Source: an uncultured Bacilli bacterium
Lineage (GTDB): Bacteria > Bacillota_I > Bacilli_A > RF39 > UBA660
Assembly (NCBI GenBank): GCA_934130105.1
Contig: CAKOXL010000002.1
Coordinates: forward strand, 7,232 to 71,231
Reading direction: 5' to 3'
DNA: 64,000 nt
Below, piece after piece: positions 14,587 through 33,585 of the stretch. A model generated the notes under the pieces. That model was not told where the DNA came from. It worked only from the letters and a program-made list of their open reading frames with translations, and made no database searches. A program made the translations under genes and the position numbers. Numbering within the stretch: position 1 is the stretch's first letter; each line of letters begins with the position of its first letter.

Positions 14587-14602
14587 AACTCCACTCCCCA
14601 AC

Positions 14603-15340
14603 TTAAATTTGATTAGAATTTATTCTTTTATTTTTAAAATATGAATAAGTAATAGTACTAACAATTAGTATTATACCAACAAAAACTATAAAGTAAATTA
14701 CTTTTTTAACAAATTCATTCTCATAATTAAATACAAACTCATCTTTTTTAATAGTAATTGATATAGCTGCATCATCTTTATTTTCTCTAGACAAGTTCCA
14801 TGTATAATGATACCCCTTAGAAAAACTTGCATTATTATTTACTACTTTATGATTAGTTTTTAAATTAACAGTAATTGTATCTAATAAGGGATATTCATCA
14901 AAACACTTATTAGTAGTTGAAGTAGATATAATTATATTATCATCTTCTTCAATAATATTAAAATACTGATAACATTTTTTCACTATTGATGAATCATTAA
15001 AATTATCAAGTGTAAATTTATTATATTCTAACATTAAACCAAGTTTATCACTAGTATCTATCAAGGTATTTTTATAGTATTCAACATTATCTAATTTAAT
15101 AGTATCATCTTCATCTACAACCGTAGAAGAAAAAGCGGGATAAGGGTATTTATAAGATGCGAGTAATAATTCACGGTAACTAAAGCCATATTTTACCTCA
15201 TTATCCCAAGTATATGAACTAGTACTTACAAATTCCATTTTTTCTTTTACTTGATTATTATATATTTCTATATCATAACTACTACTACAACCAGTTACCA
15301 TAAGTAAGAAAAATAGTAAAAATAATATTTTCTTTTTCAT
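14603..15340 (-). CDS. T4SS-associated lipoprotein with an additional C-terminal TM anchor
   Basis: Lipobox MVTGCSSS at the N-terminus and a hydrophobic helix (VIYFIVFVGIILIVSTITYSYF) near the C-terminus. 1-nt gap to VirD4 and 8-nt gap from the hydrolase. Confidence 0.65.
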   Translation of the reverse strand: MKKKILFLLFFLLMVTGCSSSYDIEIYNNQVKEKMEFVSTSSYTWDNEVKYGFSYRELLLASYKYPYPAFSSTVVDEDDTIKLDNVEYYKNTLIDTSDKLGLMLEYNKFTLDNFNDSSIVKKCYQYFNIIEEDDNIIISTSTTNKCFDEYPLLDTITVNLKTNHKVVNNNASFSKGYHYTWNLSRENKDDAAISITIKKDEFVFNYENEFVKKVIYFIVFVGIILIVSTITYSYFKNKRINSNQI

Positions 15341-15348
15341 AATTCCTC

Positions 15349-17958
15349 CTATTGTGGATAATCCGAAACAGTCATTGTATTAGCATAGAAATCAGTCATA
15401 TCAACTAAGTAATAAGGACCTGTACTAGTAAATGGTATAGTAACAACTCTAACTCCATTTTTTCCACTACTAGCTTCAGCTACTATGTATCCATCACTAC
15501 TAGTACCTATTATCATACGAATATGACCACTAGTTCCATTATTATTAGGAGGAGCATTATATATTAAATCACCAGGTTGCGCTGTATTATCAGTAGTACC
15601 ACTAAACCACTCTCTTTTATCGCCAGCTTCTCCCCATCCTTTGGCATTTTTAGATAAATATTGATATCCTCCATTATGAATAGCCCACGAGATAAATCCT
15701 GAACAATCAAGACCATTTATAGGGTAACTAGTATCTCCTGTATTAGTACCCCAACCTAGATCAATTCCATAACCAGTATATTTACCAGAAGGTGTTAACT
15801 CATAAGGCAAAATATAACCAGTTTGAGAATAAAATCCTGATGTTAAAGCAGTAGCAGCACTAACAACACCACTTCTAGTACCAAGTCCTGCTTTTTTAAC
15901 TTGACTATAAATATAATCATTGAAAGCACTAATTGTAGTACCTGATGCTTCTATATAATCCTGAACTGGGCCTTGAATAATAATGGCACCATCAGTAGAA
16001 GTAGCTGATGATATAAGTTCAATTTCAACACCATCTGAATAGAAGAATTTTAATATTTCCTGATAATTATACCCCTCATCAGCAAGCTGGTAAGAATATA
16101 ACTGACTCATACCCATACCATGACCATGCCCTGATATAACTAATTCAGTTAGTTTTTTATCAGTTAAAACAATGGTATGCTCTTCTCCATTAGGATCTTT
16201 TCTATAAGTTGCTTGATAAGTACCATCACTATTAAGCTGTGATGAACAACGACTATCAGCATAGCAGAACGAATCATAGTGTGATGAAAAAGGTACACCA
16301 TTATAAGTTAATATCTCGCCTCTAGTTGAATTAGCAGCTTCACGAGCATTATCACTTATATCTCTACTAAATGTTTGCTGATTAGTACTATTAGTTATAG
16401 CTTTTTTACAGTAATCGGTTGCAATTAAGGCATAAGTACGTGCTGCAACTGCTTGAGCTTTTAATGCTTCCATATTCATACTAGTATAAGCTTCATGTTG
16501 AACAACACCAGCAACATACTCTTCAAAATCAAATGTACCCTCACCTTCTACTGTGATTCCACCAGGACACAAACTAGAAGGTCCAGAATATGAAACACTA
16601 CAAGTTTGACTAGGACCAAATTCGCCATATAATGAATAAATATCATCAGCTATTGAAATAATTTGTTCTTTTCTTTTAACTGGATCATCTGATAATTCAT
16701 CAGAATAATAATCTTCAATAAAACTATTAACGATATTCCAGTAATAAACACTATCCTTATAAGAATCAGCTGTACCAATACTTAATTCAGCGTCATTTTT
16801 AGGAAGTGCTGCATTAGCATAATTATCAGTACAAGTACCATCACTAGAAAATTGAGGATAATATAAGTAATATGCATAATTAGTTTCTTCATTTACTCTT
16901 TTAGTAAACCAATTTCCATTTTTATCATTACTTGCAATTAATTCAAAACTTGAACTATCTTTAGCATCACCATTAAATAAATTTAAATTACTACTATCTA
17001 CTGGTACTTTTTCTAGTGAGCTTTTGCAGTAGCTTCCAGTATTATTATGGTGTGTATCATCAAGACTATATTGATTATTAATGATTTGCATCTTAGCTAG
17101 AAGACGAACATTTTTTTTCATTTTCTTATAATTATAGGATTCAGCCTTACCTTCACCGTTTTCAATTTCTTCAGCATCATCAACAACCTCTTGGTCTTCA
17201 TCTAGCATATCATCAAAACTTCTGTTAATAGTAAGAGTAGCTGTAATTAAATTAACATCAATACAAACATTATATTTCTTATTCATATCAATTTGAACAT
17301 CTTTAAGTTCTTGATAAAATTCTTCTTCTAACTCTTGTTGATCTTTACTAAAGAAGTCAACTGCTTTATCCCAAACACCTTTTATAAAATTAACGGCAGC
17401 TTCAATCGGAGCAAAGAATAACGCATAAATAATAGCTATTATTATAAATATTCCAACAAATACTAAAGCACCACAACCAGCACCAACAAGTAAAGTAGGA
17501 TTTACCTTTTTAAATAAACTAAGTGCCTCTTCAGCCTGATCTGAACTATCTGTATTATCTTTATCTTTACTTTTTGAATCTGAACTACTATCACTATTGT
17601 TATCACTATCTTCTATTTTTTTATTCATACTAACTAAAGGTGGATTTTCTGCTAAATTTTTATTTAGAAGATCATTATTTAAACTATTAGGATTTGCACC
17701 TAAAACATCAACTGCTTTATCAGCAACATCCAAAGCACCACTATCATCTAACTTCTCTGCTGCCTTATTAACTACCGGAACCTTATTAATAACCTTACCA
17801 AGTGTATTTTCAAGTTCCTGACCTGCTTTAGTATTACTAGCTAAATTATAAATTTGATTACCTGCTGTACCTCCAAAATAAGTAGCAGCAGCTTTACCAG
17901 CTACGTGAGCTGTCTTTTTTGAAGCTTGTTCTTGATTATTATTATTACTATCATTCAT
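15349..17958 (-). CDS. bifunctional peptidoglycan hydrolase: SpoIID/LytB-like domain plus C-terminal NlpC/P60 endopeptidase
   Basis: EEYVAGVVQHEAYTSMNMEALKAQAVAARTYAL is the SpoIID signature. The C-terminal LDCSGFISWAIHNGG ... GHIRMIIG gives an NlpC/P60 Cys/His pair. One TM helix lies around aa 165-190. I prefer the ATG at 17958 (GGTGA SD). Confidence 0.85.
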   Translation of the reverse strand: MNDSNNNNQEQASKKTAHVAGKAAATYFGGTAGNQIYNLASNTKAGQELENTLGKVINKVPVVNKAAEKLDDSGALDVADKAVDVLGANPNSLNNDLLNKNLAENPPLVSMNKKIEDSDNNSDSSSDSKSKDKDNTDSSDQAEEALSLFKKVNPTLLVGAGCGALVFVGIFIIIAIIYALFFAPIEAAVNFIKGVWDKAVDFFSKDQQELEEEFYQELKDVQIDMNKKYNVCIDVNLITATLTINRSFDDMLDEDQEVVDDAEEIENGEGKAESYNYKKMKKNVRLLAKMQIINNQYSLDDTHHNNTGSYCKSSLEKVPVDSSNLNLFNGDAKDSSSFELIASNDKNGNWFTKRVNEETNYAYYLYYPQFSSDGTCTDNYANAALPKNDAELSIGTADSYKDSVYYWNIVNSFIEDYYSDELSDDPVKRKEQIISIADDIYSLYGEFGPSQTCSVSYSGPSSLCPGGITVEGEGTFDFEEYVAGVVQHEAYTSMNMEALKAQAVAARTYALIATDYCKKAITNSTNQQTFSRDISDNAREAANSTRGEILTYNGVPFSSHYDSFCYADSRCSSQLNSDGTYQATYRKDPNGEEHTIVLTDKKLTELVISGHGHGMGMSQLYSYQLADEGYNYQEILKFFYSDGVEIELISSATSTDGAIIIQGPVQDYIEASGTTISAFNDYIYSQVKKAGLGTRSGVVSAATALTSGFYSQTGYILPYELTPSGKYTGYGIDLGWGTNTGDTSYPINGLDCSGFISWAIHNGGYQYLSKNAKGWGEAGDKREWFSGTTDNTAQPGDLIYNAPPNNNGTSGHIRMIIGTSSDGYIVAEASSGKNGVRVVTIPFTSTGPYYLVDMTDFYANTMTVSDYPQ

Positions 17959-17983
17959 ACAGCTCACCTCTTTTTACTGCAAA

Positions 17984-19771
17984 TTATAATCCTCCACCAG
18001 AACCGAATGATTCTAACTCTTCTGGTGTAACAATAACATTAATTCTCATACGACGATTTCCACAAACAAACAGTGCTTCTCCTTGAGAATAACGTTTTAT
18101 ACTTTCTTTTTCATTTTCATTTAAATCAATTAAACGGGCAAGATCATCAGTTGCTTGTTTTTTAAGTCCCATTACTAAGTAATATGATGCATTATCAAAT
18201 ATAGCTTTTCCATGAATAATAACTTCTGGTGCGGCAAAATCGCTAGGCTGTTGAGTAATGATAATTGAACCCGTATTATATTTACGAGCACGTCGCTGAA
18301 CTTGTGCTAAAAATTCTGCTCCCAGTGCATTGCTACCAGATAATAAAACATGTGCTTCATCTACCATCAAACAAGTATTAACATTTTTATCTAAGCATAA
18401 TCCCCATGCATACTTTAAAATATTAAAAAATAGTGCGTTACGAATATTATCAGCTGAATTCATTAATTCTTTAATATTAAAAACAATAAAATCAGTATTA
18501 GGATTAACAGTTGTATGGCCATCAAAATAATATCTAAGTTCTTGGGTTAATGGCCTTATTTTAAGCTCTAATTTTTCCATTATCATTCTTTCTTGAGTTT
18601 GTTCTGTCATTGACATTAAACGTCCACGAATAGTCTGATAAACATCTGAAAATGTTGGATAATCATTAGCTGTGTAATTATAAAAATTAGATGTAAAATC
18701 AATTCCAAATCTACGATATGTATCCTGTACTATTTCACTAAACATAGTAAGTACATCTTCTTCAATAGAAGGATCATAATATCTCATAAAACCTTTTAAG
18801 AACTGCAAAGTACGAGTTAAAACTGTATAGCCAAGTCCTTCTTTAATTTCATCTTCATCGGCATCAATTACGATTTGAAGTGGATTAATCATACCATATT
18901 CTCCACCTTTACCAAGATCTATTGATTCACCACCAAAGTTATTTGCCATTTCATAAAGTTCGTTTTCAGGGTCAATGGCAACAATCTGATAACCATTTCT
19001 AATATGACTTCTAAGCATCAATTTAGCTGCAGTTGATTTACCACTACCTGATGTACCTAAAATAATCAAGTTAGCATTATTACGATTGTTTTCTTTCTTT
19101 ATTTGATATAAGAACTGGTTAAATAAGATAACACCACCAGAAAAATCAACTCCAAGTAATGTTGATAAACCTGGATCTTTGATACTATCAAAGATAAATG
19201 GATACATAGCTGCTATTGTAGGTGATGGAATTGGTGTACCAATACGATTTTCAACATCTTGTTTTGGAAAAATAGGAACAATTGATTTTAATATTTTTTC
19301 TTGTTCAAAACGAAGTGATATACCACGCATTTCCATGGCATCCAAATAGTTTTTAACATTTATTTTCTTAAGTTCCAAGTCTTCCTTTGTATCAGCAGTA
19401 ATCATAATATGCATTTGATAATCAAAGATTTTAGCCTGACTACCAGCAAGCATCGTAACAAAAGATTCAAGTGATTCATAATCCAATCTAATTCGCTCAC
19501 GAATAGTATTATCTCTCTCATCCTGATACCTAGTTTTTAAATCAGCTATTTGTTTATTTATCATTTTTGACATAGTAGAAAAAGGTACTGGAATATGTTT
19601 AGCAACAACTTTAATACCAGACATACTAGTTAATGATGATAAATAGCCAGGATATATATATTTTGGATATGAAACAATTGTTAATATTGTTGCATACTTA
19701 CCACTAACAATAAAATCACCAGCATTAAACTGTAACCCCTTAGGAGCAATTTCAGATTTAAATATACTCAT
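17984..19771 (-). CDS. VirB4-family T4SS ATPase, ATPase body (lacks the usual N-terminal domain)
   Basis: Walker A GTSGSGKST, Walker B CLMVDEAH, IIITQQPSDF. Start ATG overlaps the stop of the upstream ORF (ATGA). Confidence 0.9.
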   Translation of the reverse strand: MSIFKSEIAPKGLQFNAGDFIVSGKYATILTIVSYPKYIYPGYLSSLTSMSGIKVVAKHIPVPFSTMSKMINKQIADLKTRYQDERDNTIRERIRLDYESLESFVTMLAGSQAKIFDYQMHIMITADTKEDLELKKINVKNYLDAMEMRGISLRFEQEKILKSIVPIFPKQDVENRIGTPIPSPTIAAMYPFIFDSIKDPGLSTLLGVDFSGGVILFNQFLYQIKKENNRNNANLIILGTSGSGKSTAAKLMLRSHIRNGYQIVAIDPENELYEMANNFGGESIDLGKGGEYGMINPLQIVIDADEDEIKEGLGYTVLTRTLQFLKGFMRYYDPSIEEDVLTMFSEIVQDTYRRFGIDFTSNFYNYTANDYPTFSDVYQTIRGRLMSMTEQTQERMIMEKLELKIRPLTQELRYYFDGHTTVNPNTDFIVFNIKELMNSADNIRNALFFNILKYAWGLCLDKNVNTCLMVDEAHVLLSGSNALGAEFLAQVQRRARKYNTGSIIITQQPSDFAAPEVIIHGKAIFDNASYYLVMGLKKQATDDLARLIDLNENEKESIKRYSQGEALFVCGNRRMRINVIVTPEELESFGSGGGL

Positions 19772-20316
19772 TGTGGCATCACCATCCCAAACGTTGTACT
19801 AGTTCCACCATTTAAGAAATTATCTAAAATAATTCTTAAATCTTCATTACTAGTCTGGCTTGCTATTAAACCAGCCGTTGAAAGTCCACTAATCATAGAA
19901 CGAACTCTCTTTTGAAGTAACTCTACATTCTTCTCTTTAAAAAGAAGATAATATTCTGTATCAACTACATTATTACTTTTAAAGTAATTACCTTTTTGAA
20001 TATCTTGACTAATTAATTTACGAATTTGTTGGTTTTGTTGATTTTGATATTGTAACTGAAGCTGTGATAAATATATTGAAATATCAACAGGTTTATCAGC
20101 AACAACCAACCAAAATTCATAGTCAATTGTATTATAAAAGTTTTTAAGAGCAATAAGCACACTATTCTGAGAATCCTCATCAAGAATAAAAATGTTACGT
20201 GGCGTTATTTTAACACCAGACACTTTATCTTGATTAGGTAAAATAATCATACCATTAGTAATTGACTGAATATTAATCCAGTCTTCAGTCCATTTACTTT
20301 GAGCTTCCTTCATCAA
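19768..20316 (-). CDS. VirB4 N-terminal-domain-like protein (separate 182-aa ORF)
   Basis: The pattern WINIQSITNGMIILPN..VSGVKITPRNIFILDEDSQNSVLIALKNFYNTIDYEFWLVV matches my recollection of the N-terminal region of Tn916 Orf16/TcpF-type VirB4 proteins. ATGA coupling to the ATPase ORF. Confidence 0.55.
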   Translation of the reverse strand: MMKEAQSKWTEDWINIQSITNGMIILPNQDKVSGVKITPRNIFILDEDSQNSVLIALKNFYNTIDYEFWLVVADKPVDISIYLSQLQLQYQNQQNQQIRKLISQDIQKGNYFKSNNVVDTEYYLLFKEKNVELLQKRVRSMISGLSTAGLIASQTSNEDLRIILDNFLNGGTSTTFGMVMPQ

Positions 20317-20611
20317 AGAAACACCAACCCTTCCATATATAACGATTCCTTTGTGTTAAATATTTATATATTTCAATTATTAATTGCCTAACGTTATGGT
20401 AATAGGCAACTGGTAATACGAGAAGACCAGTAATAATACCAGGAGATATCGCAAGTATTGCTACCCAAAGTATATCCATAGGTAAAAACATAACAAGTAG
20501 TAATGTTGTTAACAAACCACTACCAAATATAATTAAATCTATTGGCATAAATAATCCCAGTATTAACTGTCCTCTTTTCGTATTTGCCGGAATCAAATAA
20601 TTTCCATTCAC
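20294..20611 (-). CDS. VirB3/PrgI-like small T4SS membrane protein
   Basis: 105 aa with two TM helices following NTKRGQLILGL. Lies immediately upstream of VirB4 and overlaps the next ORF by 23 nt. Confidence 0.6.
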   Translation of the reverse strand: MNGNYLIPANTKRGQLILGLFMPIDLIIFGSGLLTTLLLVMFLPMDILWVAILAISPGIITGLLVLPVAYYHNVRQLIIEIYKYLTQRNRYIWKGWCFFDEGSSK

Positions 20612-20631: not shown

Positions 20632-22644
20632 CTATTTTTTTGTAGCTTCTGCATTGGCTTTTGCTGCTTTATAACCAGGATCAGTAACAACACCTGTAAC
20701 GTGTTTGTTAGTTTCACCAAGTGCTTGCTTGATACCAATAGTATCACCTTTAGAAGCATCAGCGCCTTTAATACCATAAGTAGAAAAATCAACTTTAAGA
20801 TTAACATCTTTAGCCGCATCAGAGGCAAGTCTATAATCATTATACTCTGTACCAAAATCATTAAATACGTCATTATTTGTAGGATCTTGTTCATGTCTCT
20901 GAACAGCTGCTACTAAACGTTTACCATGTGCCTGTGTTTGCATATCTTTAATTTTATCTAAAGATAATTGAGCATCTTGCCAAGTGGCAACAGTTTTATA
21001 CTTTGGACGACTAACATATGAATGTGAATCACTATCCCATACATTTTCAGTACCATCTTGCACTTGTTTTGACCAACCATGATCAATAAACCATTGTAAA
21101 CTTTGAGTATTACCTGCTTTAGCACCTTCAGTATGTGACATGAATTCTAGATAATTAATTCCCTTATGCTGAGCATCTAAATCAATTTTTAAATCAGTTT
21201 TTTCAAGTGCTTTTTTCTCTAAAGTGTTCTTATATGCCAAAATAGCCTTATTAGCTGATTCGTAACCAGTCTTTTCTTTAGTCATTCTATCATAATCACT
21301 TTCACCAGAAAATAAAGTCTGTGCCCTAGTGCTTAATCTACCACCAAATGTAGAACCAGAACTAATCCTAGATAAAGCTGTTGCATTATTTTTAGCTTGC
21401 GCATCAATTCCAGTTAATAAAGTAGGCTTATCAGTAGATAATAAAGCGTTACCGCCAGCACCAATAGCGCCTAAACCACTAAATAATGATTTACCAAAAT
21501 TTGTAAAGGCTCTTATTGGAGAAAGACCATTTTTTCTATTTTCTCTATCATACTCATTTCTAGCACGAAGCATAGAGCGTGTAGCACCAATTCCACCAAC
21601 GGCAGTAGCACCCATTCCTAACATTCTAACAAAGTTACCTTTATCTTTAATACCAAGTGCATCAAAAATAAATTTAGGAGCGCTTTTACCAAAAAAGAAT
21701 AAGCCAACCATTAAGAAAGACAATAACATCGTACCATCCCAAACTGCCAATGCACCACCACTCGTACTAGAAAAGAATCCTCTCCAAGCATCTTTAGTTA
21801 CCATAAAATCTACTATATAAACAATAAAGTATAATATTCCAAGATTAATGAATAATTCTCCCCACGTCATCATAAATGTTTTGATCCAATGAGAAAAGGC
21901 ACCATCCTTACTTGATTTAGGATCAATATAACTAATAACTGGAATAGGTGCCATCATTCTAAGAATTATCAATTTAATAGCACGAATAGCTACTTGTATA
22001 GCCATTGAAAATAAACAATAACACATTGCAACACCAACTATCGTCGATATAACAGGCAAATAATCATAGCGATATGTTTTACTTTCACTACTACTGCAAA
22101 TATCATTAATACTAGCTGTTAGCTCCTCTAAATCCTCAATTTCTCCACCTTCACAATCTTTATGTTTGTGAACAAATGCCTGCACCATAGTAACAGCCAT
22201 ATTCTTAGATACAGTAGAAACATCATCACTCTTCATTGGATTAGCTGTTCCAACAATGATTCTAGGAATAACTGGAAGTAATTTATTTTGAAATTCTGTC
22301 ATAAAGCTAAAGAAGGTTGGTAGCATAATAAGCATTAAAAGTACTGTTATTATTCTTGTAACAACCTTTGACACTCCTTGTTCCTTATCATTTATTTTAT
22401 CTGGATTAACTAAATATGTGATAAGAGAAATAGTAATTTTAAATAACATAAATATTCCCAAAATAACATATACTCTTTTTTCAATACTCTCATAAAAGCC
22501 AGTTAGTTCAAAATTAGCAAGTTGAAAAATTATTCTTAAAATTATAGATGCAACAGAATAAACACAATAATCAAAAAAGGCAAAAACTATCCTTAAAAGG
22601 CCCAAAAATACATTCTTTGTGGTCATAATTAAAATTAAATTCAT
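20632..22644 (-). CDS. VirB6/TrbL-like polytopic T4SS channel protein with ~270-aa hydrophilic C-terminal extension
   Basis: At least 7 hydrophobic helices in the first ~400 aa. Positioned between the VirB2-like and VirB3-like genes. The C-terminal third is soluble and rich in K, D, A and T. Confidence 0.65.
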   Translation of the reverse strand: MNLILIMTTKNVFLGLLRIVFAFFDYCVYSVASIILRIIFQLANFELTGFYESIEKRVYVILGIFMLFKITISLITYLVNPDKINDKEQGVSKVVTRIITVLLMLIMLPTFFSFMTEFQNKLLPVIPRIIVGTANPMKSDDVSTVSKNMAVTMVQAFVHKHKDCEGGEIEDLEELTASINDICSSSESKTYRYDYLPVISTIVGVAMCYCLFSMAIQVAIRAIKLIILRMMAPIPVISYIDPKSSKDGAFSHWIKTFMMTWGELFINLGILYFIVYIVDFMVTKDAWRGFFSSTSGGALAVWDGTMLLSFLMVGLFFFGKSAPKFIFDALGIKDKGNFVRMLGMGATAVGGIGATRSMLRARNEYDRENRKNGLSPIRAFTNFGKSLFSGLGAIGAGGNALLSTDKPTLLTGIDAQAKNNATALSRISSGSTFGGRLSTRAQTLFSGESDYDRMTKEKTGYESANKAILAYKNTLEKKALEKTDLKIDLDAQHKGINYLEFMSHTEGAKAGNTQSLQWFIDHGWSKQVQDGTENVWDSDSHSYVSRPKYKTVATWQDAQLSLDKIKDMQTQAHGKRLVAAVQRHEQDPTNNDVFNDFGTEYNDYRLASDAAKDVNLKVDFSTYGIKGADASKGDTIGIKQALGETNKHVTGVVTDPGYKAAKANAEATKK

Positions 22645-22648: not shown

Positions 22649-23809
22649 TCACTCCCCTATTCCACAAGTTGAAGTAGCAGCTCCCGTTAAATCATTAAAT
22701 ATATCTAAAAGGAAGCTTAAAATAATAGGAATAAAAAATAATGCAACGGCGATGATTAAACGTTTAACAAATTTACTGCTTGCCTTCTTTAAGGCATCCT
22801 TATCATCCTGTAGTATAGCACCAGCGAAATCAACACTACCCATAATAATAACGAAAATAGGTGCTATTATTTGAATCCAACGGAAAACCTTATTAATAAA
22901 ATCAATTAAATCATCACCTAAAATACCTTCACAATTAACTTTAGTTTGATCTCCCCAATCAACAGAATCATTTTTTTTATGATCATTACTAGTTGCATCT
23001 TTAGTAGAAATATTATAATAACCATCTTCCTGATAAGAAACTACGTATTTTGATTTATCTGGACAAGTACCAGTTCTAAATATAGATGAAGTACCAGAAT
23101 TTCTTATTTCAAACTCATTAATATAAGCTCGGCAGACACCAATTAAATCTGTTTTAAAATTAATATCAACAAGTTTATTGTCTGTTGTATATAGTTGACA
23201 TCCATTGGTTAATGTAGTACATGGATCTTGATTTGAAATTGAATCAGTATTTTTATTTATCTCATTATAATTTTGAAAGCTATTACCATCTGCACTTACA
23301 GTAATAACAGGTGAAACTTTAACATAATTTTTGCCAGTTGGTTCATTTTCAGAAATAGTTACATACTTGTAAAAATCCATTGTTGATATTCTTTGAGAAT
23401 TGTCTACAATAAGATATATCGTTTTACATTGACTATAGCTTCTAGAACCATCAAAGTACTTATATATTTGACTATCCATTGGAAGATAATTTTCAGAACT
23501 ATATGAATCACCATCACTTGTTTTAAAATTCCAGCTAAATTTATAGGCTGATTGATCAGTACTATCCTTCCAATTTTTTTCATTATCCTTATATGAACTC
23601 TTACCCACACTAAAAACTAAATTATAAGTAATATTATCAAAATCTTCACCATCAGCATTAAATTTGCCACCAGTAAGTTCAGCATCAACATTCCAAGTAC
23701 ACTTTGTAAAATTAATCTCGCTTTCAGTAATAGCATCAACATTAACATTAATAAAATTAATTATTAAAAAGCTGATAATTGTAAATAAAATTTTATTTCT
23801 AGCTTTCAT
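22649..23809 (-). CDS. secreted ectodomain fused to a VirB2-like two-helix membrane hairpin (paralogue 3)
   Basis: Signal peptide MKARNKILFTIISFLIINFINVNVDA, a ~290-aa Cys-containing domain, then the C-terminal module IQIIAPIFVIIMGSVDFAGAILQDDKDALKKASSKFVKRLIIAVALFFIPIILSFLL. Confidence 0.65.
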   Translation of the reverse strand: MKARNKILFTIISFLIINFINVNVDAITESEINFTKCTWNVDAELTGGKFNADGEDFDNITYNLVFSVGKSSYKDNEKNWKDSTDQSAYKFSWNFKTSDGDSYSSENYLPMDSQIYKYFDGSRSYSQCKTIYLIVDNSQRISTMDFYKYVTISENEPTGKNYVKVSPVITVSADGNSFQNYNEINKNTDSISNQDPCTTLTNGCQLYTTDNKLVDINFKTDLIGVCRAYINEFEIRNSGTSSIFRTGTCPDKSKYVVSYQEDGYYNISTKDATSNDHKKNDSVDWGDQTKVNCEGILGDDLIDFINKVFRWIQIIAPIFVIIMGSVDFAGAILQDDKDALKKASSKFVKRLIIAVALFFIPIILSFLLDIFNDLTGAATSTCGIGE

Positions 23810-23821
23810 TATTACTCACCC

Positions 23822-24565
23822 CTACTCTATATTAAGCCAACAATTCTTCCAATCATCTCTATTACCAACATCTGTTTTAGCAACCATACCAATTACTATT
23901 GAAACAATCGTTGTTATAAAGAATACAAAAATAGCTGATAAGATTCTTTTTACAAATTTTGAAACACTATCTTTACCACTTTTATCATCACCAGACATCA
24001 TAGCTTTAATAAGATCAATAGTACCCATTAATATTAATAAAATTGGCACAAAAATTTGAATTGTATTAAAAACTACTCTCTTTAAAAATATTATTGCTGG
24101 CTTTAATGCTGTAGGGCATCCATATTCATCATTGTCATCTTTATCAGCACTAGAATTGCCACAAGAAGGATTAGTTATTTTACAATCACCAGAACAAAAC
24201 TGTTCATAATTTTCGTCTGTTTTGTTACAATAACTATTAATAATAGAATTAGTAATATCGGTATTTGATTGAACTGCTTTTATAATACCAGAATTAGTTT
24301 CATAAAAAATATCTTCACAATTTGATGTAGGCATAACACTGCCAAGAGGAAGTTCTCTTGTTGGAACAGTAACACTAACATCATATAAATCTGGAAGAGA
24401 TATTTCCCAATTAAAGGTATCCTTTTTTGTAAGTGTTATTTTAGCCCCAGTCATTTGTCCAACATATGAGCAACTAAAACTATCGGCATAGACACTATCA
24501 CTAAACACAACGATACTTAATATCATAACTATTAATAAACTTATTTTCTTTAATGTTATTTTCAT
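23822..24565 (-). CDS. secreted ectodomain fused to a VirB2-like two-helix membrane hairpin (paralogue 2)
   Basis: I prefer the ATG at 24565 (GGAG 8 nt upstream), giving signal peptide MKITLKKISLLIVMILSIVVFSDSVYA. C-terminal module IQIFVPILLILMGTIDLIKAMMSGDDKSGKDSVSKFVKRILSAIFVFFITTIVSIVIGMV. Confidence 0.65.
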   Translation of the reverse strand: MKITLKKISLLIVMILSIVVFSDSVYADSFSCSYVGQMTGAKITLTKKDTFNWEISLPDLYDVSVTVPTRELPLGSVMPTSNCEDIFYETNSGIIKAVQSNTDITNSIINSYCNKTDENYEQFCSGDCKITNPSCGNSSADKDDNDEYGCPTALKPAIIFLKRVVFNTIQIFVPILLILMGTIDLIKAMMSGDDKSGKDSVSKFVKRILSAIFVFFITTIVSIVIGMVAKTDVGNRDDWKNCWLNIE

Positions 24566-24608
24566 AATCAACACTCCTTGAAGTAAAATAATCCAAAATA
24601 ATTATAAC

Positions 24609-24648
24609 ATAAAAAAAATAATAGCAAAACATATAATTTGCTATTATT
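24609..24648 (-). terminator. strong rho-independent terminator directly after the short VirB2-like gene
   Basis: Perfect 12-bp stem AATAATAGCAAA (24617-24628) / TTTGCTATTATT (24637-24648), followed on the minus strand by TTTTTTTT. Confidence 0.8.
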
Positions 24649-24667
24649 TAAATTTTTATGAATTATA

Positions 24668-25015
24668 CTAGTTACCAGCAGCGTCCCAGCAAGCACCCCA
24701 ACCAGTAGTATCACCAGTGCCACCATGTTCATCACCACTAACATTAGCAAATAAATTCATAACTAATGTTACGATAGTTACTACAAAGAAAATAGCTACG
24801 GCGTAAATTACACGTTTAATTAATTTACTAGTTGCACCTTTAATTTCTTTATCGTCACTTGACATAACAGCTTTACCTAAATCAATTGAACCCATTAATA
24901 TTAAAACAATAGGGATACCAATTTGAATTAAAGGAAAAACACCTTTTCTAATAAATTGAACTATTGGTAATAAACCATTACAAGCATCAGCCATTATTTG
25001 TGTTAAATTAGACAT
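24668..25015 (-). CDS. VirB2/TrbC-like pilin-type protein (115 aa, paralogue 1, candidate major subunit)
   Basis: Hairpin IQIGIPIVLILMGSIDLGKAVMSSDDKEIKGATSKLIKRVIYAVAIFFVVTIVTLVMNLF. The AAGGAGGA SD abuts the ORF-track ATG at 25021, so the ATG at 25015 (6-nt spacing, MSNLTQ) is the likely start. Confidence 0.65.
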   Translation of the reverse strand: MSNLTQIMADACNGLLPIVQFIRKGVFPLIQIGIPIVLILMGSIDLGKAVMSSDDKEIKGATSKLIKRVIYAVAIFFVVTIVTLVMNLFANVSGDEHGGTGDTTGWGACWDAAGN

Positions 25016-25039
25016 AAACATCCTCCTTCGTATGTACTT

Positions 25040-25068
25040 ATAATATAATAAGTTCTACATTTAGTCAA
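25040..25068 (-). promoter_or_regulatory. sigma-A-type promoter for the short VirB2-like gene
   Basis: -35 TTGACT (25068-25063), 17-nt spacer, -10 TATTAT (25045-25040). Confidence 0.65.
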
Positions 25069-25140: not shown

Positions 25141-25176
25141 ATAAAAAACAAAGAAAATTAATTTTATTCTTTGTTT
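25141..25176 (-). terminator. rho-independent terminator ending the Tad-like transcription unit
   Basis: AAACAAAGAA (25146-25155) / TTCTTTGTTT (25167-25176) 10-bp stem overlapping the stop codon, followed on the minus strand by TTTATTTAT. Confidence 0.7.
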
Positions 25177-26137
25177 AATAATTATTTATACCAAGTTTAC
25201 TAAGTAGGTTTGATAATACATCGGTATTATTAAGTCTCTCATCAAGTGGTGGTAATACAAAGAAAGTTTTAATACCAGCTTCATATTCAAATTCTTTAAC
25301 ATCACTTTCTGGTAAAATACTTTGTGCCACAACTATTTTTCTACCAGCAAGTTTCTCAAATATCTTACGATCCCTCAACATTAACTTATTTAATTTTATA
25401 GTAGATGGTTCTATTAAATAAAGTACATCATTACATACTTCCTCATTACCACTACTATTTAAATCAACTAAAATAACACTAAAAGCCTTCCTTTTTAATA
25501 ACTCACTAGCTAAGTTATCTTTAGTAACAGATATCATATCTTGATCGTGAAAGTATGAAAAATCTCTTTTATCAACTTCAATTGCCAAAACAGATTTACC
25601 CATATTTTTTATTTCACGTTTCAACATATAAGTTAACATAGTAGCGCCAGAATGTTCAGTAACATTTTTAATACCCAAAATATAAGTTCCAGCCTGAACT
25701 ACTTGTTGAACTCCACCATCACTAATAACTACACCACCACTATCTGATGAGCCACCATCTATTTGATGTAAATGAGCAACATCACGGTAAGTATTAGGAT
25801 TATTAAGTAAATAATTTACACCATCCAAGTTAGTAGTAAAGTTATAAATTCCCATTGAAATTAATTTTGATAAAAAGCTAGGTGCTAAACATTCAGGTGT
25901 ATCCGGTAATAAAACAATAATCTTTTCAATATCAAGTGACATTGCAAATTTTTGTAAATTACGAACGTCTTTATAATTTTTTATGGCCGTTAAATCAAGA
26001 ATCATTCTGCCAAAAAAGAAATTAGAAAACATTTCAATTAATTCATCAGCATCAAATACACCATGTACAGATTTTATTATTTCAATATCCAAATTAGAAA
26101 GTTCTGCTTGTCTTTCATTTGATATAATTACATTCAT
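25175..26137 (-). CDS. TadZ/CpaE-like protein: receiver-like N-domain plus ParA/MinD-like domain with degenerate P-loop
   Basis: The N-terminal ~125 aa have an alternating beta/alpha pattern (ILDLTAIKNY, IIVLLPD, GIYNF). In the C-domain, GIKNVTEHSGATMLTYML ... KSVLAIEVD aligns to the KGGxGKT region of MinD/CpaE but lacks the GKT lysine. Location within the Tad-like cluster. Confidence 0.5.
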   Translation of the reverse strand: MNVIISNERQAELSNLDIEIIKSVHGVFDADELIEMFSNFFFGRMILDLTAIKNYKDVRNLQKFAMSLDIEKIIVLLPDTPECLAPSFLSKLISMGIYNFTTNLDGVNYLLNNPNTYRDVAHLHQIDGGSSDSGGVVISDGGVQQVVQAGTYILGIKNVTEHSGATMLTYMLKREIKNMGKSVLAIEVDKRDFSYFHDQDMISVTKDNLASELLKRKAFSVILVDLNSSGNEEVCNDVLYLIEPSTIKLNKLMLRDRKIFEKLAGRKIVVAQSILPESDVKEFEYEAGIKTFFVLPPLDERLNNTDVLSNLLSKLGINNY

Positions 26138-26151
26138 TTAATCACCAGCCT

Positions 26152-26646
26152 TTACTCACAAGTAGGTAAACCAGAATTAGCACCAGATGAGTATATTAAT
26201 GCTGTTTCACCTTTTGTAGTAAATACATTATTCATAGCTGCTATTTCTGGAAATATCTTATTAAAAATAGGAATATCAATATCTACAAATGTTAAAACAG
26301 TATAATACGCACCTTTATATAAAGAATTATCACTTGATGTACCTGCAATATCTACTTTTTCATATTTATAGCAAAATAATCCATTATTAAGAGGAGCTTC
26401 TGTATAGCCATCTGGACAAGTCCTCTCACCTTTTTGAACGCCATAATTAGTTCTTAAAAATAAATCATCAATTTGCGTAACAGCACTGCAAGTTAATCCT
26501 TCATTCTTTTCGATAATACTCCTAATTTCATTCTTAACGCGAAAGGCTTTAGTGTAATTAACACTAAAAGCCAAATAGCAATTAACAATAATTAAAAATA
26601 TTAAAATCATTTGCATGCTTAACGCACCACCTATAGCGTCTCTCAC
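26152..26646 (-). CDS. TadE/pseudopilin-like protein with Cys-bracketed ectodomain
   Basis: GTG start with a GGTGA SD. The leader MRDAIGG is followed by a hydrophobic helix (ALSMQMILIFLIIVNCYLAF). The leader resembles that of the adjacent small pilin ORF (M-[KR]-[DE]-A-x-G). Confidence 0.5.
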   Translation of the reverse strand: MRDAIGGALSMQMILIFLIIVNCYLAFSVNYTKAFRVKNEIRSIIEKNEGLTCSAVTQIDDLFLRTNYGVQKGERTCPDGYTEAPLNNGLFCYKYEKVDIAGTSSDNSLYKGAYYTVLTFVDIDIPIFNKIFPEIAAMNNVFTTKGETALIYSSGANSGLPTCE

Positions 26647-26666
26647 ACTATCACCACTTTTCTATA

Positions 26667-26840
26667 TTAACCTTGTGCACAAGCATCAGGATTTTCTTTA
26701 CAATCAGTACCAATATTATTCCATTGACCAGTAATTGTATTTTTTATTTGTGGCCACATAAACCAGAAAAATGCAATAATTGCTCCAATTGCGATAATTG
26801 TAACAACAGTCATATTTAATTCACCGGTTGCCTCTTTCAT
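26667..26840 (-). CDS. Flp-sized pilin candidate, 57 aa (not in the ORF track)
   Basis: Codon-by-codon translation gives MKEATGELNMTVVTIIAIGAIIAFFWFMWPQIKNTITGQWNNIGTDCKENPDACAQG. AAGGAGGG SD lies 6 nt upstream, with TGGTATAAT further upstream. Short charged leader ending in Gly, one hydrophobic helix, short tail with a Cys-x6-Cys loop. Confidence 0.6.
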   Translation of the reverse strand: MKEATGELNMTVVTIIAIGAIIAFFWFMWPQIKNTITGQWNNIGTDCKENPDACAQG

Positions 26841-26870
26841 TTACATTCCCTCCTTATTTTATACATTCTT

Positions 26871-26899
26871 ATTATACCATAAATTTTAATCATTACTAT
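26871..26899 (-). promoter_or_regulatory. extended -10 promoter in front of the small pilin ORF
   Basis: TGGTATAAT (26879-26871). No good -35 (ATAGTA). Confidence 0.5.
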
Positions 26900-28431
26900 A
26901 TTTTTTTAAAAATTTTATACATTATACTGTCATCTTCATTACTATCTAAATCACTATAATATTTTGTATATATAACTTCATAATTAGAATTATTAGATAA
27001 ATATTTATACATAGGACTATAATTATCAACTAATAAGTGTGTAAATTGATATTTTTCTAAAAATAATTCTATATCCAATTTTCCTGATTCTAACTGATAT
27101 AATTCCTTTAAAATATCATACTTTTTGTTATTAGCTTTAAGAAATATTTCAGCACGACTATCACTATAAGTTTTAACCCCTAAGTATTCAGCATAATTAC
27201 ACTCTTCATAAATACAAAAAAGTCTAATATCACTAATATTTTCTTGGTTTACCATAGTGTTAACACCAGTAGCAATGCTACTAGAAAAATTAACTTTTGA
27301 ATTATTTACATGATATAAAAGTGTTAGTAATACCAAGATACATAATATTAAGAATAAAGATTTAGCTCTTTTTTTTAGCTTATCACTAGGTTCCTTGACT
27401 ACATAAAATTTATCTTGCAAATAATAAGAAATTGGATAAATAGAACCAATTATAAAAAATAAAAGACCTCTATTTGAAGAAATAGCCAAATAAGTAGTAC
27501 CAATTAATAATAAGAAATGATATATCTTAATTTCTTTTTTTATATAAATTATATATATCAAATATACTAAAAAAATAATTAAATATGTAGTAATACCAGC
27601 AAAATTATGAATGCTAGGTACCATCATCTCACCAACTAAATTATAAATCCATGAAACATTATAAGAAGTTAATACATAGGTCATTGCTTTTATACCATAT
27701 GGATTAATAAATCCAGCTATTATCATACCCAAAATAGGAACTAAAAAATCTCTTCTTTTACCACCAGTAGATACAACCTTTCCAATTTTAAATGAAAACG
27801 TATTAATAAAAAATGGTAGAAAAAAACAAAATAACATTAACCACATAGAAGCATGACAATTTATCATTATTAATGATAGTAATGGTAAAAATAATAACAC
27901 TCTTTTTTCTTTAGTTTTTTCATACTTTTCTAATATGTATAATTCTGTTAATAATAAAGATGTAGAAAATATCTGTGGACGTGATGTTAAAAAAGATAAA
28001 TCAAATAAAGTTACTATAATAGTAGTAAATAATGCTGAAAGATTTCTCTTATTATTAGTAACTAACATTAATAATTTATAAGTTATAAATACTATATAAA
28101 TATTTACTAAGTTAACAATGAAATATATACCATTATTACCAAATAAACTATAGGTTTTATAAAATAACACATCTATTAACCATTGTTGAATCACTAAATT
28201 TAGTCCTTCGTGAATAGTAAAAGGATCAATATTAGGAAATCCATGATTTAAGATGTACTTCCCATAATTTAAAATAAACCAAGTATCATCATTCAAATAA
28301 GTTGAACAAATAGCACCAAAACATATGGGAATTAATAAAAAACAAAATGCTTCCCACTTAGAAGGATGATAGTTTATAATTTTATTTTTTATTTTATTTA
28401 TTATTTTCATAATATCATTTATCACTTGCAC
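26896..28431 (-). CDS. polytopic membrane protein, GT-C-fold glycosyltransferase-like (inferred)
   Basis: 511 aa with at least 10 hydrophobic helices, an acidic motif (YLNDDTWF) just after the first helix and a ~130-aa soluble C-terminus. Overlaps the upstream oxidoreductase gene by 17 nt. Confidence 0.45.
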
Positions 28432-29977
28432 TTTCTTGATAATCCTTTTCAGTATTTACATTCCATATATTATCTTTTTTCTTTTTATTATTAATTATAT
28501 TTTTAACAGTTTCAAAAGAAGTTATCATTGAATGATCCATATTATTATATCTATGTTGGCCGTTTCTACCAACGCAATATAAATTATCAAATTTATCTAA
28601 GTATTTAATTAATTTATCAATTTCAGAATAAGTATCAAAATATGCAGGATATGCTTTTTTTACTTTTTCTCTATGATGATCTAACACATCAGCCCTGTTA
28701 ATGATTCCCATAGATACAAGTTCATTAATAGCAAATTCACTACATTCCTTATCAGACATATTCCAAAAATCATCATTTTCACTACAAAAATATTCAAGTC
28801 CTATCCATACAGTATCATCAGGATTTTTAACCATATATGGACTCCAGTTATTAAATATTTGAATTCTACCTATTTTAACATCAGATTCTTGGACATAAAT
28901 CCAACAATCAGGTACAATATTACCTAAAGTTTTAATATTAGTTTCATTTTTTAAATTTAATTTTTTAACCAATAATCCTACTGTAACAAAATCACGATAA
29001 GGAAGACCATTAGCTATTATTTGGATATTTTTAGGTACATTACCATTAATGTCATTTACTAAATCTTTAAGTGGCATAGAAGAAATAAAAATATCACCTT
29101 TTATTTCAACTTCAGTACCATTATTATCACAAACAACAGAAATAATTTTATTATCTCTTATATTTATTTTAACAACTTTATGTTTTTTTAATACTGTTCC
29201 ACCCATATTTTCTATTTCTTGACTAACATCATCCCACAACTGACCTGGTCCATATTTTGGGTAAATGAATTCTTCAATCAAGGAAGTTTCCTTCTTGCCA
29301 CCATTTATATGAAAAGTTTTCTTAAACATATCTTTTATTACTAAAGTAACAGATAGTCCCTTAACTCTTTGACTACCCCAATCAGCTGATATTTCCTTAG
29401 GATGCCTACCCCAAAGTTTCTCTGTATATCCTTCAAAAAACATACTATATAATTTTTTTCCAAAACGATTAATATAAAAATTTTCAAGTGAATCTTCTTT
29501 TTTCTTAACAACTGTACTCTTTAAATAACTAAAACCACAAGATATAGTTCTTTTAAATCCCATGTTTTTAAAAGTTTCTTTTTTCATACTAATTGGATAA
29601 TCAAAAAACTTCTTTAAATAATAAATTCTAGAAACTCTATTTCTAATTAGCATAACTTTGTCTTCTTTTTCGGGATCAGGACCATCTTTTACTAGCCTTT
29701 TTTTTCTCTTTAACTTTTTATCATCATAACTTGGCTTACCTTGAATAGATAAAAAATGTGTCCAGAAATTAATGACTTCTTGATTCTTAGAAAAAAAACG
29801 ATGACCTCCAATATCCATTCTATTTCCGTGATAATTAATAGTTCTAGAAATTCCACCGATTTCATTTGTACTTTCTAAAACTATTACATCATATTTTTTG
29901 CTTTTAGTTAATAATTCATATCCAGCTGTTAAGCCAGCTGGACCAGCACCAATAATAACTACCTTTTGTTTCTTCAT
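28415..29977 (-). CDS. FAD/NAD(P)-binding oxidoreductase (amine-oxidase / UDP-galactopyranose-mutase-like fold)
   Basis: N-terminal Rossmann motif [17 protein letters not shown] ... [14 protein letters not shown]. 520 aa. Confidence 0.75.
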
Positions 29978-30021
29978 ATTTATAACTCCATAATAAAATA
30001 TCAGTACTATAAACTACACTC

Positions 30022-30050
30022 ATTATATCATCAAATTAGCAATTTTAAAT
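30022..30050 (-). promoter_or_regulatory. candidate internal promoter (extended -10)
   Basis: TGATATAAT (30030-30022), with a T9 tract (30060-30052 on the minus strand) just upstream. Confidence 0.4.
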
Positions 30051-30082
30051 CAAAAAAAAATTGCTATAAAAACAATTCTTTT

Positions 30083-30868
30083 TTAAATATTTGTAAACAT
30101 ATAAAGCATAGCCATTAATATAAGTACCATTACACCAGCACCAGTTGCAACTAACATAATCATAGTTTGACTTTCCATATGATTTAGACGCTCTTTATAT
30201 TTTTGCTCTCTTGCTTTAGCTTGTAAATTAGAAACTGTTCTAGAAAACATCAACAATCTTTCCTGTTTATCTTCTTGTTTACCAAGACCTAAACGATATA
30301 AAAGTCTCATCATTCTCATTGAATCTCTAACTGGATAATCATTAGCAAATTCCATATAAGGATCAATTGATGAATCACCAGCATCAATCTTAGCAATCAT
30401 TTCTCTTAAACCAGGTTTAAAAATATCAGGAGCATCATCAATAGATTTAGCAAGTGCAACAGGAACAGTATAATGTTGAACTAATATTTCTAAACCCTTC
30501 AAATAGTAAGGAAGCATAATATCAATATCATGTAAATGTTTTTTATAATATTTTTTAAGTGATGTATAACTTGATTTAAATGTAATATAACCAACAACAA
30601 TAGATAACACAATATTAATTGCACTTAACTCAGTTAAAAAGATAAATAAGAAAACAACTGTAACCAAAAATCCCATTTTAAGCCTTTTATTAAATAAAAT
30701 ATTAGGATCGACCTTTTCGCCATACCTAGCAGCTACTAAAAAGTCATAATCACTTTCCTTTAGCATATAAAGTACATCTTGATTGTCTTGAATAAATTTT
30801 TTACCATTAATAGTATTATTATAAAGTAAAACACCAAATATTATTGCTCCACAAATAATTACTTCCAT
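30083..30868 (-). CDS. TadC-like platform protein (T2SS F-domain-like polytopic membrane protein)
   Basis: 261 aa with an N-terminal TM, two central TMs, a cytoplasmic helical domain and a C-terminal TM. Its start overlaps the stop of the preceding TadB-like gene. Position is downstream of the CpaF-type ATPase. Confidence 0.55.
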   Translation of the reverse strand: MEVIICGAIIFGVLLYNNTINGKKFIQDNQDVLYMLKESDYDFLVAARYGEKVDPNILFNKRLKMGFLVTVVFLFIFLTELSAINIVLSIVVGYITFKSSYTSLKKYYKKHLHDIDIMLPYYLKGLEILVQHYTVPVALAKSIDDAPDIFKPGLREMIAKIDAGDSSIDPYMEFANDYPVRDSMRMMRLLYRLGLGKQEDKQERLLMFSRTVSNLQAKAREQKYKERLNHMESQTMIMLVATGAGVMVLILMAMLYMFTNI

Positions 30869-31770
30869 TATTCAGCACCAACGTTCTCGTTATAATATTT
30901 TTCTCCTTTAAGAAGAAAATAACTATTAATAATTAAAATACCGTGTAACACAATTAACATTACAGGATTACTTAATATAGCAATATAAGTTTCACGTCCA
31001 AGTAAATATTGAACTAACATAACCATCAAATATAACATAACACCATACTTTAAAAAGGATTTATGGAAATTAGCTCTATCTATACGGTCACGATATACAC
31101 TTTCAACCAACATATCTATATCAAGTTGCATGTTTTCTAAAGATTCTCCAGAATCTCTTGCACCTTCTTTAGTTATCTGTAAAAATAGTTGATGCATATT
31201 TTTAACAATATAATAAGGATATTTTTCACTCATAAATTGAACTGATTCATCAATAGAACCATTTTGATATGCAAGTGAAATCATCATATTAACATCAGAT
31301 AACACAGGATCTTCTAATACACCACTTGCTGCTACCCCTTCAAGGGATTTAACAAAACTCTGAGTAGTTGCAAATTCCATTATAGTATTTGTTGTATATA
31401 CTTGAATCTGTTCAAATAAAAATTCACTATATACTCTTTTACATCTCAAAAAAGCCAAATAAGGAATACATGCATTAGCTATTAAAATATAAATTATTGA
31501 AATAAATAAGTTATAAAAATACAAGTAAGAAATTACACCGGCAAAAATAGTAAAAACTATAACTTGAATTATATATTGCTTAGGAGTATATTCTTGACCT
31601 AATTCTTTAGTCTTCTCTCTTACAACTTTAAAAGAGTAAGGAGCAAACTTATCATAAATTACGCCAGCTTGTTCAGTGATAAATTTATAAACATTCTGGC
31701 CACGATATCGTCTATATATGAAAACAAATAAGGCGATTAATAATATTATAACTAATTCCATTTTCATCAC
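30868..31770 (-). CDS. TadB-like platform protein (T2SS F-domain-like polytopic membrane protein)
   Basis: 300 aa with the same TM/cytoplasmic-domain/TM layout as its neighbour. 10-nt gap after the ATPase gene. Confidence 0.55.
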   Translation of the reverse strand: MMKMELVIILLIALFVFIYRRYRGQNVYKFITEQAGVIYDKFAPYSFKVVREKTKELGQEYTPKQYIIQVIVFTIFAGVISYLYFYNLFISIIYILIANACIPYLAFLRCKRVYSEFLFEQIQVYTTNTIMEFATTQSFVKSLEGVAASGVLEDPVLSDVNMMISLAYQNGSIDESVQFMSEKYPYYIVKNMHQLFLQITKEGARDSGESLENMQLDIDMLVESVYRDRIDRANFHKSFLKYGVMLYLMVMLVQYLLGRETYIAILSNPVMLIVLHGILIINSYFLLKGEKYYNENVGAE

Positions 31771-31780
31771 TCCCTTACTA

Positions 31781-33559: not shown

Positions 33560-33585
33560 GACAATTCCCCTTTTTATTCTTTTTT

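Follow-up and report, generated by a model that had tools for sequence, protein, structure and literature searches.

The array of three paralogous genes

The subject of this analysis is a tandem array of three genes in a stretch of 64,000 nucleotides (nt) from an uncultured Bacilli bacterium (GenBank assembly GCA_934130105.1, contig CAKOXL010000002.1). The whole stretch is here called the window, and all coordinates are window positions. On its minus strand, between 22649 and 25021, three consecutive open reading frames (ORFs; 24668-25021, 23822-24565 and 22649-23809) encode proteins of 115, 247 and 386 amino acids (aa). With high confidence, we consider them to be pilin-like subunits associated with a type IV secretion system (T4SS), the genes of which follow directly downstream (Table 1).

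The true start of the short gene is the second ATG of its ORF, at 25015. It is found 6 nt past a perfect AGGAGG and yields a protein of 115 aa, like the orthologues. The gene of the 247-aa protein starts with the ATG at 24565, which is preceded by AAGGAG.

A first-pass annotation, which had been made from the sequence alone, had stated that the C-termini of the three proteins align. This they do, almost without gaps over about 95 aa and with 39-44% identity among the three. The motifs listed at that time, IQI..PI..I.MG..D, a loop with DDK and SK[FL][IV]KR, and A[VI]..FF, were all found again in the three proteins. Pairwise BLASTP with composition adjustment yielded E values of 1e-25, 2e-20 and 3e-15. 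These are far beyond what chance would produce for transmembrane (TM) segments, and the paralogy of the three proteins is therefore real.

The short protein is, as had been proposed, essentially the bare module; it has no signal peptide and contains two cysteines (Cys). The two larger ones, equally in line with the earlier description, begin with hydrophobic signal-like segments that end in AXA-type sites (VYA/D in the 247-aa and VDA/I in the 386-aa protein), continue with Cys-containing ectodomains and have eight Cys each.

Predicted structure and the cysteine pair

AlphaFold2, when run with the family alignment, models the short protein as a helical hairpin (residues 18-53 and 57-94) with a pLDDT (predicted local distance difference test score) of 81-93. 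The N-terminal tail is acidic, and the two Cys are placed on short terminal helices that flank the hairpin. The model of the 247-aa protein (mean pLDDT 84.6) comprises a signal helix, a beta-rich ectodomain (residues 30-124), a Cys-rich linker, the hairpin (residues 155-191 and 194-230) and a tail helix. Across both models the pLDDT of the hairpin is 81-95. The loop between its helices is rich in K and R. Since a signal peptide and an ectodomain precede the first helix and the loop is basic, both ends should be outside and the loop inside. The module is thus predicted to be a membrane hairpin with extracellular termini and an internal basic loop.

The relatives fit this topology. The 150 family representatives include 70 short proteins, 58 proteins of 143-759 aa that end with the module (51 of these with signal-like N-termini), and 20 that begin with it and continue with a C-terminal extension. 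Either end, therefore, can bear extra domains, as would be expected if both ends are outside.

The single Cys in the tail of the module had been seen in the first-pass annotation. A second one just ahead of the hairpin had been overlooked: C14 in the short protein, C150 in the 247-aa and C293 in the 386-aa protein. Both bracketing residues are invariant in 34 aligned sequences and are present in 119 and 124, respectively, of 130 diverse modules. The secreted proteins of the locus are generally enriched in Cys, with 2-3.5% versus 0.5-1.1% in the cytoplasmic ones. Judged by Cys conservation and topology, the two extracellular residues probably tie the ends of the hairpin together by a disulfide bridge. 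In VirB2/TrbC pilins the ends are joined by head-to-tail cyclisation. The putative Cys clamp may, by analogy, do the same job here.

Family assignment of the hairpin module

The only family that is consistently matched by the module is Pfam PF18895 (T4SS_pilin); no other membrane family is equally strong. Against a curated gathering score of 26.6 bits, the match of the 386-aa protein amounts to 18.4 bits (E 0.0022) and that of the 247-aa protein to 14.2 bits (E 0.049). The matches extend over profile positions 7-71 of 71, that is, over the full two-helix profile. Among the relatives, 23 of 34 and 55 of 150 match PF18895, the best with an E value of 7.3e-8, and 6 of the 150 reach E <= 7.5e-6, which by extrapolation corresponds to about 26.6 bits. 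PF04956 is absent from the Pfam matches of window proteins and relatives alike.

The first-pass annotation had pointed to similar pilin-like proteins in integrative and conjugative elements (ICEs) of mollicutes. Such a family indeed exists: NCBIfam NF045849 (Mbov_0395, pilin-like conjugal transfer protein). The short protein matches it with 13.9 bits (E 0.033; cutoff 40), as do 11 of the 150 relatives at E <= 0.01 (best E 5.1e-6). Module relatives also produce weak matches to VirB6-like NCBIfam models. For the short protein there are 855 homologues, all of them unnamed and without a precomputed Pfam domain. At E <= 1e-3, an exhaustive profile search brought up at least 9,027 clusters (50% identity), 3,632 of them with E <= 1e-10. 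By sequence, the module is a divergent fringe of the PF18895 superfamily.

Distribution and synteny

When one genome per species was scanned, relatives were detected in 311 genomes, from which 80 loci were kept and compared. All 80 are from metagenome-assembled genomes of uncultured gut bacteria, mostly labelled Bacilli or 'Tenericutes'. Genera and labels comprise Ca. Scybalousia/Alloscybalousia, Faecimonas, Onthousia, Clostridium sp. CAG:710 and CAG:417; the genera checked belong to the Bacillota, Bacilli incertae sedis (NCBI). A few loci are labelled Muribaculaceae or Christensenellaceae, probably erroneously. In the literature on RF39/RFN20 and secretion systems nothing relevant was found.

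The whole arrangement is collinear in about 70-80 of the 80 loci, and array and T4SS genes are found together in 67-80 of the 80 species. The short gene is the first of the array in every locus. It is followed by one more module gene in 69 loci and by two, as in the window, in L001, L003 and L074. It is also the most conserved gene of the array, with a median identity of 58% versus 38-41% for the long paralogues. The identities compiled in Table 1 imply that the motors are highly conserved and that the surface-exposed parts evolve fast. One locus, L005, is instructive: the hairpin genes and the gene of a 320-aa protein are there found with the VirB6, VirB3 and VirB4 genes, and the Tad-like part, which is discussed below, is not adjacent. 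This arrangement indicates that the hairpin genes belong to the T4SS module.

Many small proteins have two TM segments and a charged loop, and the window proteins stay below curated thresholds. One might therefore think of an unrelated protein, such as a holin or a bacteriocin immunity protein, that is in the locus by chance. The strict synteny with T4SS genes across 80 species makes this hardly credible. Furthermore, lysis or bacteriocin genes are not adjacent, tblastn against 50,697 phage records revealed no module relative at E <= 1, PHROG families gave no match at E <= 0.01, and 72,556 plasmids of PLSDB contained no relative at E <= 1. As far as tested by the phage and PHROG searches, holins and other phage proteins are ruled out.

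Putative expression signals of the short gene

The promoter-like site ahead of the short gene (TTGACT-17-TATTAT) is the best minus-strand promoter match between 22400 and 26900. Right behind the stop codon of the short gene, a terminator-like hairpin can be formed. Its stem of 13 bp is AT-rich (AAATAATAGCAAA / TTTGCTATTATTT), and RNAfold calculates -18.1 kcal/mol. In 75% of the 80 loci, the 110 nt past the short gene contain a hairpin with a stem of 9 bp or more and a T-run. The corresponding figures are 8% for mononucleotide shuffles and likewise 8% after the last module gene. A looser first criterion was discarded, as it yielded 76% in shuffles of such AT-rich DNA. The putative attenuator is thus a conserved feature of the array. 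A layout of this kind would be expected if the first product were required in large excess over the following ones, which is an indirect hint at the stoichiometry.

The ectodomains

The ectodomain of the 247-aa protein (about 120 aa; 24119-24484) recurs in the family as a membrane-proximal domain with six conserved Cys. It directly precedes the hairpin in 34 of the 150 representatives, longer relatives adding further domains N-terminally, and it is also seen in the second module gene of L001. All eight Cys of the 247-aa protein are at least 90% conserved in 34 homologues. A Foldseek search of the model against the PDB revealed nothing significant (best E 0.3). The ectodomain of the 386-aa protein (266 aa; 22934-23731) is an ORFan, which matches only itself among 5.8 billion proteins.

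Other relatives have the hairpin fused to a GDSL lipase, a C39-like peptidase, or cadherin-like or Listeria-Bacteroides repeats, and the genes after the short gene encode proteins of 122-567 aa in the 80 loci. The ORFan status, the range of lengths and the variety of fused domains characterise the ectodomains as hypervariable; they behave like parts engaged in surface recognition. One family match carries an SNF2 helicase domain, probably a fusion made by gene calling.

The neighbouring genes

Directly downstream of the array, the VirB6/TrbL-like protein of 670 aa matches PF19597 (TrbL_4) with 29.6 bits, which is above the cutoff, and NF045848 (MMCAP2_0566) with an E value of 2.7e-6. The loop in its first hairpin (residues 54-107; 22324-22485, minus strand), NPDKINDKEQGVSKVVTR, resembles the loop of the module, SSDDKEIKGATSKLIKR. 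An hhalign comparison of the module with the N-terminus of the VirB6-like protein was not significant (E 0.015, probability 3%) and is not used as evidence. The resemblance may reflect a shared partner or a distant duplication.

The VirB4 is split. NF045975 (Mbov_0397 VirB4) matches the 595-aa ORF with an E value of 4e-103 and the 182-aa ORF with 1.5e-14. The division into VirB3, VirB4-N and VirB4-C is conserved in 67 of 67 related loci and, therefore, must be considered a genuine architecture, not a pseudogene. Between the module and the VirB3-position protein hhalign found no match.

At the upstream edge of the locus, a divergent gene encodes a thioredoxin-fold lipoprotein with a CXXC site, which also matches the thioredoxin-like family of F-plasmid TraF. 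It has the same edge position in L005 and L070, which makes three of three cases, the window included, in which that edge is visible. This lipoprotein is a candidate oxidoreductase or disulfide catalyst for the Cys pairs and the Cys-rich secreted proteins of the locus.

Within the 64 kb of the window no relaxase, integrase, transposase or tRNA was found. The flanks consist of housekeeping genes (BipA, LspA, RluD, DXS, PNPase, PBP5), and there is no break in base composition.

Upstream of the T4SS genes, a Tad-like pilus module comprises a TadE-like protein of 164 aa, a Flp-like candidate of 57 aa, two polytopic proteins, a CpaB-like protein, DUF5411, a VirB11/TadA/CpaF-like ATPase of 592 aa, a Cys-rich secreted protein of 1007 aa and a sortase-B-like protein. 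Its collinearity with the T4SS genes suggests that Tad pilus and T4SS form a coupled machine. The ATPase has an N/T/S/D-rich low-complexity tail of about 250 aa at its C-terminus (31781-32540, minus strand). This tail is variable; orthologues measure 385 to 544 aa. The Tad-like module is broken up at 26896-29977 (minus strand) by a polytopic protein of 511 aa and an amine-oxidase-like protein of 520 aa of the flavin adenine dinucleotide (FAD) type. The former occurs in 6 and the latter in 3 of the 80 loci, which marks a lineage-specific insertion.

The array is situated at the very junction of the two modules, and both are collinear in most relatives. Its proteins might, then, be components of the Tad-like (type IVc) system, for instance of the platform or of pseudopilin type. 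We regard this as very improbable. The family matches point to T4SS pilin-like models, separate Flp-like and TadE-like genes are present, and in L005 the hairpin genes stay with VirB6, VirB3 and VirB4 where no Tad-like module adjoins. With two TM helices and without a class III prepilin motif, the proteins are also unlike Flp and TadE pilins, and their identification as Flp/Tad pilins was rejected.

Table 1. Features of the locus, with their conservation given as the number of loci with a homologue (of 80) and the median identity to the window protein
Feature	Position	Strand	Loci	Median identity	Remarks
VirD4 coupling protein	12214-14601	minus	55	67%	
Lipoprotein	14603-15340	minus			
SpoIID+CHAP cell-wall hydrolase	15349-17967	minus	38	35%	
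VirB3-position TM protein (105 aa), VirB4 N-domain (182 aa), VirB4 ATPase (595 aa)	17984-20611	minus	67 (VirB4 ATPase)	79% (VirB4 ATPase)	three overlapping ORFs
VirB6/TrbL-like polytopic membrane protein, 670 aa	20632-22644	minus	70	30%	directly downstream of array
386-aa paralogue	22649-23809	minus	80 (long paralogues)	38-41% (long paralogues)	predicted signal peptide, ~266-aa ORFan ectodomain with 6 Cys, hairpin module at 22652-22933
247-aa paralogue	23822-24565	minus	80 (long paralogues)	38-41% (long paralogues)	predicted signal peptide, beta-rich ~95-aa ectodomain, Cys-rich linker, hairpin module at 23825-24118
Terminator-like hairpin	24611-24649	minus			between short gene and first long paralogue; 7-nt loop, T-run
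Short hairpin-only protein, 115 aa	24668-25015	minus	80	58%	proposed major pilin-like subunit; ORF readable from 25021
Promoter-like site TTGACT-17-TATTAT	25040-25068	minus			upstream of short gene, AGGAGG next; consensus match only
320-aa protein	25175-26137	minus	78		directly upstream of short gene; no family match
Flp-type prepilin-like ORF, 57 aa	26667-26840	minus			MKEATGELNMTVVTIIAIGAIIAFFWF..., 2 Cys; ~63-aa homologues in L001 and L070
Tad-like module	25175-38666	minus			directly upstream of T4SS genes; collinear with them in most of 80 species
Tad-like ATPase			67	76%	
1007-aa secreted protein			60	33%	
Thioredoxin-fold lipoprotein	42196-42636	plus			lipobox VSG/C, active site CSAC; divergent, upstream locus edge

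What the three proteins might do

The best explanation of the array is that it encodes the pilin-like subunits of a chromosomal T4SS of the monoderm (MPF_FATA-like) type, the short protein being the core subunit and the long ones minor subunits that carry ectodomains. We assign to this reading a probability of roughly 0.55. That the three proteins polymerise as major and minor subunits is a part of it in which we have moderate confidence.

The 115-aa protein would be the abundant subunit, having its own promoter-like site, a perfect ribosome binding site and the terminator-like hairpin behind. After extraction from the membrane, its copies would be assembled on the VirB6-like/VirB4 machinery. 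The product would be the extracellular part of the apparatus, either a conduit that spans the wall or a pilus. Read-through of the terminator-like hairpin would yield less of the 247- and 386-aa proteins, which would join the same assembly via the same hairpin module. Displayed at the surface, their fast-evolving, disulfide-rich ectodomains would contact the target cell and replace a VirB5-type tip or adhesin. A major subunit with two minor ones displaying adhesin or tip domains had already been envisaged in the first-pass annotation; the terminator-like hairpin and the higher conservation of the short gene agree with that part of the idea, and no VirB5-like fold was found for the 247-aa ectodomain (see below).

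Quite a few observations weigh against this explanation. All three window proteins stay below the curated family thresholds of Pfam and NCBIfam, and the short one has no Pfam match at all (E <= 0.1). The fold, a hairpin of two helices, is very simple, and profiles rich in TM segments tend to collect spurious matches; families of the G-protein-coupled receptor type also appear, with low counts, in the Pfam search of the 150 representatives. The helix-basic loop-helix layout of VirB2/TrbC, which had been proposed from the start, is indeed predicted. The relationship itself is not seen in the comparisons: when the family alignments of 34 and 130 sequences were compared by hhalign with seven authentic VirB2/TrbC sequences from annotated plasmids, the probability was 0.2%. 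A search of PDB sequences with the family profile hit no pilin, chance matches having E > 1. Foldseek, a method for which a bare helical hairpin is too simple, found no pilin in the PDB for that of the short protein (best E 1.2), and neither of the two AlphaFold2 models matched VirB2, TraA or VirB5. The 247-aa ectodomain, in particular, matched no VirB5-like fold; it is predicted to be beta-rich, not elongated and helical. The short protein also lacks the long cleaved leader that is typical of VirB2 and TraA. The terminator test rests on mononucleotide shuffles and a hand-made criterion. An even number of Cys, which is true of the three window proteins, was dropped as a general rule, being found in only 32 of 58 long relatives. 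Finally, a T4SS pilus has so far never been demonstrated in Bacillota (PMC12857230). The module may thus work like a classical VirB2, yet homology is not demonstrable.

Some of these points can be turned into a different explanation. The hairpin could be a membrane anchor or docking module beside the channel that does not polymerise and tethers accessory surface proteins, perhaps via the VirB6-like protein; the short protein would then be a translocon subunit like VirB3/PrgI or PrgF. The lack of detectable homology to canonical VirB2 and the uninformative fold searches are compatible with this view, and Gram-positive T4SSs are thought to use adhesins in place of pili (PMC12102498, PMC12857230). 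The faint loop resemblance to the first hairpin of the VirB6-like protein, the weak matches to VirB6-like NCBIfam models and the fusion of the hairpin to enzymes (GDSL lipase, C39-like peptidase) in relatives fit as well. Nevertheless, an anchor is somewhat unlikely in our judgement. The family matched best and consistently is that of the PF18895 pilins and not one of VirB3 or VirB6 proteins, and the VirB3 position is occupied by a separate gene. The helices of about 36 aa exceed the needs of a simple anchor, and strong expression signals plus attenuator suggest a large excess of the short protein, as is typical of a polymer subunit.

If the proteins indeed polymerise, they would offer a monoderm T4SS a compact way to reach and to recognise a partner cell, and the hairpin would be a natural scaffold for the display of arbitrary domains. 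In any case, the locus suggests that a PF18895-related, pilin-like family is entrenched also in the Bacillota, being present in no fewer than 311 reference species of uncultured gut Bacilli, and the findings point to a lineage-wide chromosomal machine of T4SS and Tad-like pilus in these abundant bacteria. One may be tempted to go further. The lineage would then have a vertically inherited, relaxase-less Tad-T4SS machine with the first T4SS pilus or conduit of Bacillota, built from a disulfide-clamped subunit, with ectodomain-bearing minor subunits that choose the partner cell, and the machine would serve attachment or exchange. Taken as a whole, this picture is speculative and rather doubtful. 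If true, the machine would be a functional counterpart of the essential T4SS of Patescibacteria, acting on other bacteria or the host, and not one of classical plasmid or ICE conjugation.

Comparison with known systems

According to a 2025 review, Gram-positive T4SSs lack VirB2 and VirB5, Patescibacteria being the single exception (PMC12857230). The remark in the first-pass annotation that the arrangement had not been described for monoderm T4SSs is thus in keeping with the literature. Already known are the PF18895 arrays of Patescibacteria and the 'pilin-like' mycoplasma ICE family of NCBIfam, to both of which the present family is related. The covalent fusion of ectodomains to a pilin hairpin and the conserved, putative Cys clamp appear to be new; we found no description of them, nor any mention of either in PMC12102498 or PMC12857230.

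The T4SSs of Patescibacteria are chromosomal, mostly relaxase-less and equipped with arrays of 2-11 divergent VirB2-like genes (PMC12857230, PMC12102498); such pilin arrays are also attributed to Wang et al. 2023, as cited in PMC12857230. PF18895 and PF04956 were used there to call 'VirB2-like' pilins (PMC12102498, Quinonero-Coronel et al. 2025), and PF18895 was reported to be typical of freshwater Patescibacteria (bioRxiv 10.1101/2025.04.23.650224). The likeness to the window is considerable: a chromosomal, MPF_FATA-like T4SS in a monoderm, tandem divergent genes of two-helix pilin-like proteins near virB4, usually no relaxase, a type IV-type pilus system alongside, and a family that here overlaps PF18895 at its fringe. 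The differences are equally clear. The host belongs to the Bacillota (uncultured gut Bacilli), and the window proteins score below the PF18895 threshold. The array has only 2-3 genes, in which a short conserved gene is followed by an attenuator and then by paralogues with large N-terminal ectodomains, and a near-invariant Cys pair brackets the hairpin.

The ICEs of mycoplasmas share with the window the order of a pilin-like protein, a polytopic TM protein and VirB4 (Mbov_0395/0396/0397; MMCAP2_0565/MMCAP2_0566). NF045975 is the closest model for the VirB4 of the window, NF045848 for the 670-aa protein and NF045849 for the module. The scores, however, are far under the equivalog cutoffs (13.9 versus 40 bits; 345.8 versus 590 bits). 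The locus is not on a recognisable ICE, the pilin-like gene is multiplied and fused to ectodomains, and the host, in contrast to mycoplasmas, is cell-walled, with a wall hydrolase encoded in the locus.

With VirB2, TrbC and TraA the module has in common the predicted helix-basic loop-helix layout with the termini outside, and its position by the VirB3, VirB4 and VirB6 genes. It differs from these canonical pilins by the lack of detectable sequence homology, and the host has no outer membrane. The ectodomain paralogues are possibly analogous to VirB5, but here the ectodomain belongs to the same covalent chain as the pilin hairpin and is not a separate protein.

Tandem variable pilin paralogues are also known from the Trw system of Bartonella and from Anaplasma, where they are read as surface variation for different targets (PMC12857230, PMC12102498). 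Those organisms are diderms, and their pilins are canonical PF04956 proteins, with multiple copies of VirB2 and VirB5 and without fused ectodomains. In the gut Bacilli, unlike in these systems, the short copy is conserved and the variation is mainly found in the fused ectodomains.

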